From the IMG/VR virus record IMGVR_UViG_2698536435_000010: 4,832 nt of DNA. One strand, 5' to 3'. Numbering within the stretch: the first letter of the stretch is position 1; each line of letters starts with the position of its first letter. The notes under the pieces are model-generated. The model had not been told where the DNA came from and searched no databases. It saw nothing but the letters and a program-made list of their open reading frames with translations. The DNA comes from a virus. Its lineage: Duplodnaviria; Heunggongvirae; Uroviricota; Caudoviricetes. The position numbers and the translations under genes are program-made. Positions 1,912-4,076 of this stretch are shown in pieces.

Positions 1912-2559
1912 ATGGCACAATTTAAAGTTGATGATTTTCTGATTGAGTTAAGTTTTAACTCTCAGAAAGTTTTAAAAGGCTTGGAAAAAGCCGAGAAACA
2001 AACGATGCAGGTAGCATCACGAATTGAGAAGCGATTGAATAAGTCGTTTAGAGTTAATCCTACGCCTTTAAATGATTCTCTCAAACTAATGGAAAGAAAT
2101 GTCGATAAAACTGTTTCCAAGATTGAGCAGCGTCTTAAAAACACTAGAGCGTTTAAGATTAAAACTGAAATTGAGGATACTTTAAAGCCACTTAGACAAC
2201 CAAGACAGCCACGAATTAGCGGAAGCAGAGCAATCACAGCAGCTTACTCAGCGAATATGAGCAAGCTTCGTGACTTTAATCCTATGCTTGAGAAGTATTT
2301 TAAAAGCCAGTATTACAGCTTAAGCAGTAAATCCAAGACACTTGGAAACGAAACTTTTAATCGTGAGTTAGCAAAGTTAAATCAGTCTCTTCGTGAAACA
2401 CTTTCTAAGTTTAACAAGACCACCAGCAAAAATAATCACAGTGAAAATGCTTCAAATAGTCTGGATGTATCCCCCTCTGTCAGGATAGTTGTCACCCCCA
2501 TCGAAAATACTAATGACAAGATGGGAACAGATCGTGAAACGAATTTCACCAGAACGTAA
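1912..2559 (+). CDS. phage tail tape measure protein, 5' fragment interrupted by an IS; native coding ends about 2477, the last 27 codons are IS-derived
   Basis: Shine-Dalgarno aaagaggtga at 1892-1901 before ATG 1912. Lys/Glu/Ser-rich low-complexity N-terminus typical of tape measure proteins. Composition switches from AT-rich to GC-rich at about 2478 and the ORF runs through the IS left end to TAA 2557-2559. The same frame resumes after the IS (see 4162-4806). Confidence 0.65.
   Translation: MAQFKVDDFLIELSFNSQKVLKGLEKAEKQTMQVASRIEKRLNKSFRVNPTPLNDSLKLMERNVDKTVSKIEQRLKNTRAFKIKTEIEDTLKPLRQPRQPRISGSRAITAAYSANMSKLRDFNPMLEKYFKSQYYSLSSKSKTLGNETFNRELAKLNQSLRETLSKFNKTTSKNNHSENASNSLDVSPSVRIVVTPIENTNDKMGTDRETNFTRT
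2478..2499. repeat. left terminal inverted repeat of the IS3-family element
   Basis: tgtcaggatagttgtcaccccc matches the reverse complement of 4055-4076 (tgtcaaggtagttggcaccccc) at 19 of 22 positions. Confidence 0.6.
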
Positions 2560-3016
2560 ATCGGCTGCACTGGCTAAATTACTACCGCCTTACAACATGA
2601 CCGTCACCGCAGTTGCGCAGATGGAAGGGATATCGGAAGCTACCCTTTATTACTGGCGTAACAAGGCGAAAGCAGAGGGAATACCGGTGCCGGGTGCAAA
2701 CAAAACTACAGACCAATGGTCAGCCGAAGCCCGGCTGGCTGTGATTATCGAAACAGCTACACTCAGCGAAACAGAACTCGCGCAATACTGCCGTAAAAAA
2801 GGGCTTTACCTGGAACAGATTAGTCAGTGGAAACAAGGCTTTTTGCAGGTGTCTTCGCCCACTGACAAAGCGGCGCTCAAACAAAGCCAGAAAGAAGTTA
2901 AACAACTAAAACGCGAACTGCTTCGTAAGGAAAAGGCGCTGGCGGAGGCGGCAGCGATACTGGTGCTGCGAAAGCAGTTGCGGGATTTTTACGGGGAAAC
3001 CGACGAGGACGACTGA
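2513..3016 (+). CDS. IS3-family transposase OrfA (HTH DNA-binding plus leucine-zipper-like region); start codon uncertain
   Basis: HTH-like segment TVTAVAQMEGISEATLYYWRNK and C-terminal heptad Leu region LKQSQKEVKQLKRELLRKEKALAEAAAILVL, as in IS3-family OrfA. The track start at 2489 is a TTG inside the inverted repeat; ATG 2513 is the first plausible start, ATG 2597 an alternative. Stop TGA 3014-3016. Confidence 0.75.
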   Translation: MTRWEQIVKRISPERKSAALAKLLPPYNMTVTAVAQMEGISEATLYYWRNKAKAEGIPVPGANKTTDQWSAEARLAVIIETATLSETELAQYCRKKGLYLEQISQWKQGFLQVSSPTDKAALKQSQKEVKQLKRELLRKEKALAEAAAILVLRKQLRDFYGETDEDD

Positions 3017-3051
3017 CGCCCGGAACAGAGCGGCAGGCACTTATCGGTTAC

Positions 3052-4047
3052 GTGCGGGACGCGATGGCGTCAGGAGCTCGGCTGTCAATAGCGCTGACGG
3101 AAGCGGGATTAAGTGAACGGACGTGGCGACGCTGGCAAACGTCGTGGGAAGACAAGCGTGTCAGCACGGTCAGGCCCTCCCCGGTGAACCAGTTAAGTGA
3201 GCAAGAAGAGCAACAGATACTGGCAGTGTGCCATCAGCCAGACTACGCCAGCCTCCCCCCGTCACAAATCGTACCGGCGTTGGCGGATAAGGGGATTTAT
3301 CTGGCAAGCGAGTCAACCTTTTACCGGGTACTGCGTCGTCATGGAGAGGTGCATCGTCGGGGACGGCAACGGGCAGCGCAGAAAGTCACCCCGGCTACGA
3401 GTTGGCAGGCCAGCGGGCCGAATGAGGTGTGGACATGGGACATTACATGGGTTCCGTCAACCGTAAAGGGGCGCTGGTTTTACCTGTATCTGGTGGAAGA
3501 CCTCTACAGCCGAAAAATCGTGGGATATGAAGTGCATGAAACTGAAAGTGGTGAGCAGGCGGCAGCCCTGATACAACGCACGGTCCTTCGGGAAGGATGC
3601 TGGCAAAACCCGCCGGTACTGCATGCGGACAACGGCGCGGCGATGAAGTCACAGACGTTGCAAATGAAGCTACACGAGCTGGCGATAACCCCCTCTCACA
3701 GCCGGCCGGGAGTGAGTAACGATAATGCGTATGTGGAGTCGCTGTTCCGGACACTGAAATATGTCCCGCAGTGGCCGTCATCAGGGTTCGGCAAGCTGGA
3801 GGAGGCGCGTGAATGGATAGAGGTTTTTGCTCAGTGGTATAACGAAATGCACAGACATAGCGGCATCAGGTATGTGACGCCGGGTCAGCGACATCGTGGA
3901 GAAGACGGTGTGTTGCTGAAAAATCGGGATGAGGTGTACAAAAAGGCAAAAGCGGAACGGCCTGAACGCTGGTCTGGCAGAACACGAAACTGGCATCCGG
4001 TAGGCAAGGTAATGCTGAATCCAGAACGGGAAAAACAGGCAGCCTAA
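3052..4047 (+). CDS. IS3-family transposase OrfB (DDE / rve-like catalytic domain), in the -1 frame relative to orfA
   Basis: DDE triad candidates in WTWDITWVP, HADNGAAMKS and SNDNAYVESLFRTLK with family-typical spacing (about 56 and 36 residues). The frame is open upstream from 2929, overlapping orfA by 88 nt. The called start is GTG 3052; ATG 3064 also possible. Confidence 0.85.
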   Translation: MRDAMASGARLSIALTEAGLSERTWRRWQTSWEDKRVSTVRPSPVNQLSEQEEQQILAVCHQPDYASLPPSQIVPALADKGIYLASESTFYRVLRRHGEVHRRGRQRAAQKVTPATSWQASGPNEVWTWDITWVPSTVKGRWFYLYLVEDLYSRKIVGYEVHETESGEQAAALIQRTVLREGCWQNPPVLHADNGAAMKSQTLQMKLHELAITPSHSRPGVSNDNAYVESLFRTLKYVPQWPSSGFGKLEEAREWIEVFAQWYNEMHRHSGIRYVTPGQRHRGEDGVLLKNRDEVYKKAKAERPERWSGRTRNWHPVGKVMLNPEREKQAA

Positions 4048-4054
4048 ATCAACC

Positions 4055-4076
4055 GGGGGTGCCAACTACCTTGACA
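4055..4076. repeat. right terminal inverted repeat of the IS3-family element
   Basis: gggggtgccaactaccttgaca; its reverse complement aligns with 2478-2499 (19/22). Confidence 0.6.

Follow-up and report, generated by a model that had tools for sequence, protein, structure and literature searches.

Introduction

Insertion sequences (IS) of the IS3 family move by copy-out/paste-in transposition, with an OrfAB fusion protein produced by −1 ribosomal frameshifting and a circular intermediate. The slippery heptamer A AAA AAG is typical of the family but not defining. Classic members including IS3, IS911, IS600, IS2, and IS150 share with the element described here a DD(35)E+K transposase, OrfA and OrfB in −1 phase, a target duplication of 3–5 bp, TG..CA-type repeats, and a right repeat whose outer edge carries a −35-like TTGACA. 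Elements of the IS481 family also resemble it in their rve-type DDE domain and N-terminal HTH_32-like region, but they consist of a single ORF and employ no frameshift. The genome of Shigella sonnei is heavily laden with IS and rich in pseudogenes.

Among named elements, the closest relative is ISPsy31, an IS3-family element of Pseudomonas syringae pv. actinidiae with an ISfinder name and a published length of 1665 bp (Butler et al. 2013, PMC3583860). Its OrfB is 56% identical in amino acid sequence to that of the present element, compared with only 25–30% for the OrfB of classic members. Both elements have two ORFs in a −1 frameshift layout and a nearly identical inverted-repeat core (TGTCAGGATAGTTGTC), and ISPsy31 likewise has 7-nt tips outside its repeats, CCCCCGG and AACGCCG. 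They differ in host, in length (1665 vs. 1613 bp), and in the slippery site, which ISPsy31 keeps as A AAA AAG while AAAGCAG is found at that place here. Compared with the classic members, whose repeats lie at the very ends, the present element lacks the A6G motif and ends 7 nt further out, with 5′-C...CG-3′.

The window, meaning the whole stretch of 4,832 nucleotides that was analysed (IMG/VR record IMGVR_UViG_2698536435_000010), is a complete short-read contig with breakpoints in multi-copy IS1 on the left and IS630 on the right. We conclude with high confidence that positions 2471–4083 hold an intact 1613-bp IS3-family copy of the ISPsy31 clade, which inserted recently at codon 186/187 of a tape measure gene in a phage-derived island of S. 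sonnei and duplicated the bases GTAT. The identical flanks point to S. sonnei as the host; the evidence for this includes CP022457.1, which is S. sonnei 2015C-3566 (PMC10924462).

Interrupted gene and order of insertions

The element is a GC-rich block within an AT-rich ORF, as originally described (54.6% GC vs. 36.4% and 40.4% in the flanks). The identity of the target as a phage tape measure gene is also borne out by an intact homologue, which scores 77 bits (vs. 41) with TMP_3, 58.5 (vs. 21.35) with TIGR02675, and E = 1e-91 with phrog_4036. On the plus strand, the 5′ fragment (1912–2470) comprises codons 1–186 and the first base of codon 187 as aligned to the intact 688-aa genes of loci L004 and L091, and it is 100% identical to the sister genomes. 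The middle fragment (4084–4791, plus strand) continues to codon 421, includes most of the TMP_3 domain, and ends at the TA of 4790–4791; within the window, TMP_3 is carried by the fragment 4162–4806. A Dit-like gene (PF21821, 74.6 bits) follows downstream of the tape measure gene. The chimeric 215-aa ORF was found on only 2 contigs, whereas the collection lists the exact sequence of the neighbouring 236-aa protein in 4271 blocks, a contrast that bears on the order of events below.

The same gene has been hit by other IS. At the right end of the window, 4792–4832 (minus strand) is an end of IS630 cut by the contig end, as judged from matches to annotated IS630 and from the breakpoint relative to intact tape measure genes. 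IS630 inserted at a CTAG site and duplicated its target TA, which is 4790–4791, so that IS630 itself begins at 4792; the junction is identical in 8 sister genomes, where a DDE_3 gene sits at this place and the IS630 transposase gene lies on the minus strand. At the left end, 1–52 (plus strand) is the right end of an IS1, also cut by the contig end and matching annotated IS1A/IS1B in thousands of plasmids. It truncates a hypothetical island gene of 107 aa, and from base 53 onwards the window resembles the E. coli ECONIH4 island. A 3′ remnant of 71 aa is left at 82–297 (plus strand), aligning to the 3′ part of 8922–9245 in L004; a family search with this remnant gave no match. The IS1 junction is likewise found in the 8 sister genomes. 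Since the IS1 and IS630 junctions are shared by sisters that lack the IS3-family element, its insertion is the most recent in a series that had already truncated the gene.

This order bears on the original prediction that the insertion inactivated tail assembly, and on the reading that it made a live prophage defective. The ORF is truly split at codon 186/187, and purifying selection acts on intact copies found elsewhere (dN/dS 0.10–0.37), both of which speak for such an effect. Against it, IS630 already sits after codon 421, in the same place, in all 8 sister loci that lack this IS, and L110, the sister locus examined in detail, has a second IS3-family insertion of IS600-type further into the tape measure gene as well as an IS2 in the adjoining Dit-like gene. 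Tail assembly was thus not inactivated by this IS, as the gene had already been cut in genomes lacking it. Moreover, head (capsid), portal, and terminase genes are not recognisable even in the intact E. coli island, which means that the insertion had no full tail or virion programme to disrupt. Loss of a working tape measure gene through this insertion is therefore very improbable, although the accompanying view of the host region as a phage-derived element rather than a live phage stands. As the gene was already broken by older insertions, the event is one of ordinary genome decay, and it probably has no phenotypic effect. Its importance is small: another IS in S. sonnei, in an already dead gene, serving at most as a strain marker and a sign of recent IS arrival, probably by plasmid.

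Ends of the element and target duplication

The complete element (2471–4083, plus strand) is delimited by comparison of copies and by empty sites. Eight sister loci from S. sonnei-type assemblies match window positions 1–2470 at 99.9–100% identity and 4084–4832 at 100%, and the two flank matches overlap by exactly 4 bp, GTAT. Sister and E. coli empty sites place the left copy of this target duplication at 2467–2470 and the right copy at 4084–4087; in the intact E. coli homologue, the sequence at the insertion site is CTGGAT-GTAT-TAGCTAC. The duplication is within the 3–5 bp expected for the IS3 family. The left end of the element reads CCCCCTCTGTCAGG... and the right end ...CCTTGACACTTACCG, with the insertion junctions given by the 30-mers GGATGTATCCCCCTCTGTCAGG and TTGACACTTACCGGTATTAGC.

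Short-read contigs of 4.8 kb with repeats at their ends, such as this window, can raise the suspicion of a chimeric assembly joining an IS to an unrelated locus. Such an artefact is hardly credible here: the left junction is present in two assemblies, the NCBI contig and a Logan contig from ERR028688 (possibly built from the same reads), a clean 4-bp duplication is found at both junctions, and the flanks are 100% collinear with finished chromosomes. The Logan contig, described as independent, stops exactly at 4083.

The element had been placed at 2478–4076, i.e., as 1599 bp ending at TG..CA and flanked by an imperfect 3-bp duplication, CTC/CTT. The insertion itself is real, but these ends lie 7 nt too far in on each side, as the sister loci and other copies demonstrate. 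In favour of the shorter element, its TG..CA inverted repeats exist, classic IS3 members do end at TG..CA (the IS600-type and IS2 controls), and removal of 1602 nt leaves the reading frame intact. The frame is in fact continuous after removal of either 1599+3 or the correct 1613+4 nt; both sums are divisible by three, and the former preserves the frame for no other reason. The peptide tells them apart: the predicted SLDVSPS/PVLATS is wrong, with SPSP in no homologue, and the real junction is ..SLDV/LATSAIK... Alignment of the flanks to uninterrupted homologues likewise makes them contiguous only after each boundary is shifted by 7 nt. Empty sites, at 89% as well as at 100% identity, lack the 7+7 nt, whereas the other copies all have them. 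The left tip CCCCCTC (2471–2477, plus strand) lies outside the inverted repeat, is present in all copies, and is missing from empty sites; the right tip CTTACCG (4077–4083, plus strand) is fixed by other copies, the sister empty sites, and the Logan contig. CTC and CTT are therefore not a duplication of the target but belong to the element itself, as the inner bases of its two tips, and a perfect GTAT lies outside them. With these observations, the 1599-bp element can be practically discounted.

The tips recur wherever the element is found. CCCCCTC...CTTACCG is common to five other copies, a Shimwellia copy, and Pectobacterium copies (one of which, L011, has a single mismatch in the left tip), in each case with CCCCCTC preceding TGTCAGG and CTTACCG following TTGACA. 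Elsewhere, the IS has perfect 4-bp duplications at this offset, ATGG and TTTG, and a TAT duplication is seen as well. Offset 7 accounts for 12 duplications across the clade and offsets 0–6 for none, those of relatives being 3–4 bp long, whereas the control IS600-type and IS2 copies in L110 have offset 0. Site-specific insertion between CCCCCTC and CTTACCG could in principle place the same heptamers at every copy, but it has next to no probability, because the empty site GAT-GTAT-TAG contains neither heptamer and the duplicated bases GTAT, ATGG, TTTG, and TAT lie outside them at unrelated sites.

Inverted repeats and terminal tips

The 22-nt imperfect inverted repeats previously called terminal are present, with 19 of 22 positions complementary, but they are subterminal. 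The left repeat, TGTCAGGATAGTTGTCACCCCC, occupies 2478–2499 (plus strand) and the right one, whose outer hexamer is TTGACA, 4055–4076 (minus strand); the inverted-repeat pattern has 2 matches in the window, compared with 0.00 expected from 200 shuffles. Instead of the IS3-typical 5′-TG...CA-3′ at the very tips, the real ends are 5′-C...CG-3′, with the repeats 7 nt inside.

An equivalent 7-nt tip is present in 15 related lineages; for one Terriglobia group, the ends were set by manual comparison of multiple copies, the automatic repeat-finder having chosen an internal repeat. For ISPsy31, the catalogued 1665 bp is longer than the TG..CA span of 1653 bp, and hence the catalogue entry already includes the tip sequence, within 2 nt. 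As ISPsy31 is placed in the IS3 family by ISfinder and PGAP with the same layout, subterminal repeats represent clade-level variation rather than grounds for exclusion from it. The ISPsy31-like clade thus forms an IS3 subgroup with ends 7 nt outside its TG..CA repeats, which is the safer of the two novelties of this locus. A literature search on subterminal repeats in the IS3 family found nothing relevant. Placing the ends of IS3-family elements at TG..CA mis-calls the boundaries and duplications of this clade by 7 nt per side.

If the two tips abutted (...TTGACACTTACCG|CCCCCTCTGTCAGG...), TTGACA would fall 17 nt from a TGn-xAxxxT motif in 15/15 lineages. Such an arrangement is compatible with a putative junction promoter. 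The strict 7+7 nt length (5′-C...CG-3′) also offers a concrete handle on active-site positioning in IS3 transposases or on how a junction promoter is built.

Transposase and frameshifting

The assignment to the IS3 family holds: OrfB scores 190.5 bits with NF033516 (cut-off 160), the PGAP label on identical copies agrees, and competing models remain below their cut-offs (IS481, 113 vs. 224, which separates the element from that family; IS6, 40 vs. 125). PGAP names the identical copies only generically, as "IS3 family transposase, programmed frameshift", with a frameshifted product of 504 aa; the nearest element that it names is ISPsy31.

The pair of orfA and orfB noticed earlier is likewise present, with orfB in −1 phase (orfA in frame 2, orfB in frame 1). 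According to the ORF list and Pfam, orfA (2534–3016, plus strand) encodes 160 aa with HTH_Tnp_1 and has a GTG start, as annotated in identical copies. The gene orfB (3052–4047, plus strand), whose frame is open from 2929, encodes the catalytic DDE domain, supported by NF033516 and the Pfam models rve (66.8 bits) and rve_3 (54.2 bits). Ten sequences, the most distant at 38% identity, all retain its D130, D193, E229, and K236, giving a DD(35)E + K signature with 35 residues between D193 and E229 and K seven residues past E.

Frame analysis places the −1 frameshift region within the 88-nt overlap of the two genes (2929–3016, plus strand). When 18 relatives were compared, the canonical A AAA AAG heptamer was not found in the overlap in this lineage, where it is replaced by CGAAAGCAG; most of the distant relatives retain it. 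Candidate slip sites are A-AAG (2971–2974) and a T5 run (2986–2990), each of which gives an open 504-aa fusion, and fused relatives of 504 aa exist. The frameshift site of this element appears to be weak or atypical, with A-AAG or the T5 run in place of the ancestral A AAA AAG. Present-day activity is uncertain, since absence of the canonical heptamer leaves the efficiency of OrfAB production uncertain. As a family member, the element would be expected to move by copy-out/paste-in with a frameshifted OrfAB fusion.

Distribution of the element

Full-length copies at 99.9% identity are found in E. coli, Shigella, Klebsiella, and Shimwellia, on conjugative plasmids as well as chromosomes, and the presence of such copies across four genera argues for recent movement. 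The IncI-gamma/K1 plasmid p866 of S. sonnei 866 carries one of them. The element probably came to the strain on a plasmid such as p866, from which it would have passed to the chromosome, although we only infer this plasmid-to-chromosome route.

The AT-rich island

The interrupted gene belongs to an AT-rich island of 12–17 kb found in E. coli, Shigella, and Salmonella at several chromosomal sites, including inside yecE and between yciI and tonB. E. coli ECONIH4 and 47-1826 are examples of strains with an intact copy. Its recognisable genes are only those for the tape measure, the Dit-like protein, an HNH protein, and recombinases. One prophage feature is found, an integrase at the element's edge together with insertion at varied chromosomal sites: the Dit-like gene is immediately followed, at the island end, by the gene for a large serine recombinase (Resolvase + Recombinase + Zn_ribbon_recom). 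Predicted proviruses of 24–55 kb in IMG/VR were considered as complete phages with this gene and rejected, the island ending at the serine recombinase and an unrelated lambdoid prophage adjoining it. A literature search on the S. sonnei island at tonB found nothing relevant.

Additional island genes lie upstream of the tape measure gene on the plus strand. The 236-aa protein encoded at 813–1523 is often labelled "transposase" by NCBI without domain support and has no match in Pfam, NCBIfam, PHROG, or PADLOC. It has at least 120 homologues, all 87–95% identical among the matches listed. An ORF for a 69-aa protein (1546–1755), taken from the ORF list, keeps its position in all islands examined, and family searches with it gave no match. 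Within the intergenic stretch 298–812, a consensus scan picks out a near-consensus promoter-like site at 387–447 (plus strand), TTGACA-17-CATAAT with a TG upstream, and a hairpin and T-run come directly after it. Rfam gave no match on the window or on the gene-free stretch of the island. PADLOC gave none on ten island proteins, and the island thus cannot be recognised as a defence system.

Relationship to Felix O1-type phages

Virulent, non-integrating myoviruses of the Felix O1 type (Felixounavirus, e.g., Salmonella phage SapYZU01) share with the island the order of tape measure gene followed by Dit-like gene. The island Dit-like protein is 66% identical to its phage counterpart, whereas the tape measure protein, although aligned over its full length, is only 29% identical. 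Unlike the phage, the island lacks its other ~130 genes and has the large serine recombinase instead.

It is conceivable, but on balance doubtful, that the interrupted gene belongs to a small mobile island of an undescribed kind rather than to a decayed prophage, one acting as a satellite of Felix O1-type phages or interfering with their tail assembly. The uninterrupted tape measure gene is full-length in 8/8 independent copies, which, together with the dN/dS range given above, is counted for such an island, as is the disparity in identity between the Dit-like and tape measure proteins. With a selected tape measure/Dit pair akin to that of virulent phages, the island would be a candidate for a mobile element of a new, phage-associated kind. 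A literature search on Felixounavirus satellites found nothing relevant.

The island also shares a non-coding match of 68 nt with a phage intergenic region. It was considered as a tRNA and rejected, since ARAGORN searches of the island, of the phage region, and of the sister locus all came up empty. The GC content of the two is similarly low, amounting to 38.9% in the phage, 40.9% in one intact island, and 36–40% in the island DNA of the window.

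Boundaries of the IS3-family element and its target duplication

Three leads emerge from the analysis: the corrected ends of the IS3-family element, the 7-nt tips found throughout its clade, and an island related to Felix O1-type phages. The element occupies 2471-4083 (1613 bp) and is flanked by a perfect 4-bp target duplication, GTAT, at 2467-2470 and 4084-4087. These boundaries are fixed by terminal heptamers in other copies, an empty site and the overlap seen in sister loci. The heptamers CCCCCTC, directly left of TGTCAGG, and CTTACCG, directly right of TTGACA, are present in all five of the other copies compared (from an S. 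sonnei plasmid, a Klebsiella plasmid with two copies, and an E. coli chromosome), and outside both heptamers the sequence is unlike from copy to copy. The same tips occur in a Shimwellia copy and are kept in Pectobacterium copies of 94.6-96.5% DNA identity, with a single mismatch in the left tip of one of them (L011). In E. coli ECONIH4, whose tape measure gene is uninterrupted, the empty site reads CTGGAT-GTAT-TAGCTAC. Moreover, window segments 1-2470 and 4084-4832 are adjacent in eight S. sonnei-type sister loci, where they overlap by exactly four bases, GTAT. A Logan contig from ERR028688, an independent assembly, crosses the left IS junction and stops exactly at base 4083; the IS may have a second right-hand context in that sample, for instance a plasmid copy.

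The original prediction is thus partly confirmed as an observation and partly supported as an interpretation. Its 22-nt inverted repeats are real (2478-2499 and 4055-4076, complementary at 19 of 22 positions), with two matches to the pattern in the window against 0.00 expected from 200 shuffles. However, the other copies and empty sites show that the element does not end with them at 2478 and 4076, and the supposed imperfect CTC/CTT duplication is made of the three innermost bases of each tip of the element itself. The proposed comparison of the flanks with uninterrupted homologues did recover a contiguous empty site, but with different ends and a different duplication. The restored peptide SLDVSPS/PVLATS occurs in no homologue, the true sequence being ..NSLDV/LATSAIK...

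Terminal tips across the ISPsy31-like clade

The 7-nt tips (2471-2477 and 4077-4083) are non-complementary and lie outside the TG..CA repeats. Ends were set by multi-copy comparison in Methylobacter luteus (63% OrfB identity), Mesosutterella (39%), two Terriglobia groups (38-39%) and ISPsy31. Every group so compared has a TG..CA-type inverted repeat 7 nt inside each end and 3-4 bp duplications outside the tips. A systematic scan of 39 distinct insertions placed 12 duplications at offset 7, while offsets 0-6 had none. Two controls from the same S. sonnei locus, an IS600-type element (duplication AAC) and an IS2 copy (ACCAT), have duplications flush with their repeats. The clade ranges over Gammaproteobacteria, Sutterellaceae, Terriglobia, Clostridia and Planctomycetota, with OrfB identity down to 38%. 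The left tip begins with C and the right tip ends with CG in 15 of 15 lineages (tips were compared in loci L012, L013, L045-L051, L056-L065, L070-L074, L089 and L093).

Junction promoters are known for IS911 and IS2 circles. When the tips are abutted, a spacing of exactly 17 nt separates the TTGACA that forms the outer edge of the right repeat from a TGn-xAxxxT motif of the left repeat; the A (position 2) and the T (position 6) of this motif occur in all 15 lineages. The arrangement would fit a predicted junction promoter. The published length of ISPsy31 is 1665 bp (Butler et al., PMC3583860). Its TG..CA span is shorter, 1653 bp, so the catalogued element already takes in the tips, give or take 2 nt, and thereby documents the architecture implicitly. 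No paper on the tip architecture of this clade was found.

Transposase, frameshift site and spread of the element

The predicted orfA/orfB pair was recovered, with orfA at 2534-3016 (Pfam HTH_Tnp_1) and orfB at 3052-4047 in the -1 frame, open from 2929 (Pfam rve and rve_3). IS3-family membership likewise stands: OrfB scores 190.5 bits on the NCBI IS3-family model (cut-off 160) and failed both the IS481 and the IS6 models. Residues D130, D193, E229 and K236 are invariant in an OrfB alignment with identities down to 38%, giving a DD(35)E motif with a lysine seven residues past the E. For identical copies PGAP gives a 504-aa product under the label "IS3 family transposase, programmed frameshift".

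ISPsy31 and most distant relatives have the context CTGCGAAAAAAG, which contains the canonical slippery motif of IS3 elements, whereas the homologous position in the window's element and its Pectobacterium relatives reads CTGCGAAAGCAG. The A AAA AAG heptamer is gone from this lineage (2966-2992), which retains only an A-AAG tetramer (2971-2974), at the ancestral slip position, and a T5 run (2986-2990). In annotated fused relatives the sequence ..LRKQLR[G/D]FLRGN.. matches slippage on that T5 run. An open 504-aa fusion results from slippage at either candidate site.

The nearest named element is ISPsy31, with 56% amino-acid identity, whereas IS600, IS1236, ISEfa8 and ISYpe1 share merely 25-30% with the transposase. 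An ISfinder-style name for a close relative was found in none of the sources searched, and the element is apparently an unnamed IS3-family member of the ISPsy31-like clade. It is rare: a few plasmids carry it, and of 5426 complete E. coli genomes only 6 do. Its 99.9% identity across four genera argues for recent horizontal spread. One copy resides on the S. sonnei conjugative IncI-gamma/K1 plasmid p866, and a hop from plasmid to chromosome is plausible.

Source of the window and order of insertions

The window is, in its entirety, the 4832-base short-read contig CXEC01000197.1 (assembly GCA_001252035.1). A partial IS1 copy (1-52) forms its left edge and a partial IS630 copy (4792-4832, the last 41 bases; site CTAG, target duplication TA at 4790-4791) its right edge. 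Three distinct IS families thus occur within 4.8 kb. As predicted, the interrupting block is GC-rich, at 54.6% against 36-40% in the DNA between the IS1 and IS630 ends. The non-IS parts are 99.9-100% identical to the eight sister loci, among them CP022457.1, Shigella sonnei 2015C-3566 (PMC10924462). This identity, which takes in shared IS junctions, points to an S. sonnei strain as the probable source.

The IS3-family element is missing from all eight sister loci, which carry identical IS1 (upstream) and IS630 (after tape measure codon 421) junctions. The chimeric 215-aa ORF made by the insertion is on record on two contigs only; the exact sequence of the neighbouring 236-aa ORF (813-1523) appears in 4271 of the collection's blocks. 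These shared junctions and the rarity of the chimeric ORF mark the insertion as the youngest, strain-specific hit on a gene already reduced to a pseudogene. It should be phenotypically neutral and is ordinary genome decay in S. sonnei. In L110, the one sister genome studied in detail, an IS600-type element cuts the tape measure gene again and IS2 cuts the Dit-like gene.

A phage-derived island related to Felix O1-type phages

The identity of the target as a tape measure gene is upheld by its intact 688-aa homologue, which matches Pfam TMP_3, TIGR02675 and phrog_4036 (E = 1e-91). It is followed by a Dit-like distal tail protein (PF21821) and a large serine recombinase, which marks the element edge. 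E. coli ECONIH4 has this module inside yecE; E. coli 47-1826, E. coli Z1323CEC0004 and S. sonnei have it between yciI and tonB, and in IMG/VR contigs it adjoins unrelated lambdoid prophages. At 12-17 kb the island is small. Its other proteins with matches are an HNH endonuclease and a small resolvase; the remainder have no phage, Pfam or defence-system match, and capsid, portal and terminase genes are absent from the island proteins searched. Hence the label "phage-derived element" was correct; the reading of a defective prophage that lost tail assembly to the IS was not.

The tape measure gene is full-length (688-693 aa) in each of eight independent uninterrupted copies, with pairwise dN/dS of 0.10-0.37 and dS up to 0.29. 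Selection has maintained the gene, apparently inside the small island. In E. coli Z1323CEC0004 a different IS3-family element split it independently (L090 21750-25150). That element has an annotated AL1L pseudoknot, and the island there holds more IS copies and a Tn5-type resistance transposon.

Among phage tape measure proteins, the nearest come from virulent myoviruses of the Felix O1 type (only about 29% identity, full length). The Dit-like protein, encoded past the window's IS630 end, is 66% identical to the product of the gene next in line behind the tape measure gene of Felixounavirus SapYZU01 (island locus L091 15977-16747; phage locus L117 7250-8029). GC content is 38.9% in the phage, 40.9% in the intact island L091 and 36-40% in the window's island DNA. 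Furthermore, a gene-free island stretch and a phage intergenic region share a non-coding core of about 56-68 nt, GATTTTTAACGTGGCTAC.AC.ATCCACCCATACC, followed by ACC-rich short repeats (L091 7404-7471, L094 4889-4956, L008 38777-38821 and L095 1774-1818; SapYZU01 38406-38473). The core was not detected in the S. sonnei island copy, and the other island ORFs gave no match to the phage. From these likenesses, a low-probability reading is that the island might exploit Felix O1-type phages as a satellite or interfere with them; no paper linking the two was found. A tRNA reading of the core was ruled out, and Rfam gave no match to it or to L091 7170-9064. The latter stretch, about 1.9 kb and outside the window, has no ORF above 72 aa and is 79-93% conserved among islands of different genomes.

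Additional features of the window

The 236-aa protein is widely named "transposase" at NCBI. Pfam, NCBIfam, PHROG and PADLOC searches gave this no support, and the label looks like a propagated mis-annotation. Within the 298-812 intergenic region, 387-447 contains a promoter-like site close to consensus (TTGACA-17-CATAAT, preceded by TG) that runs directly into a hairpin and T-run. More terminator-like hairpins lie at 585-605 and about 685-712, and a strong hairpin with a T-run, at 1781-1812, stands 3' of a 69-aa ORF. These predicted features could be small RNAs or attenuators.
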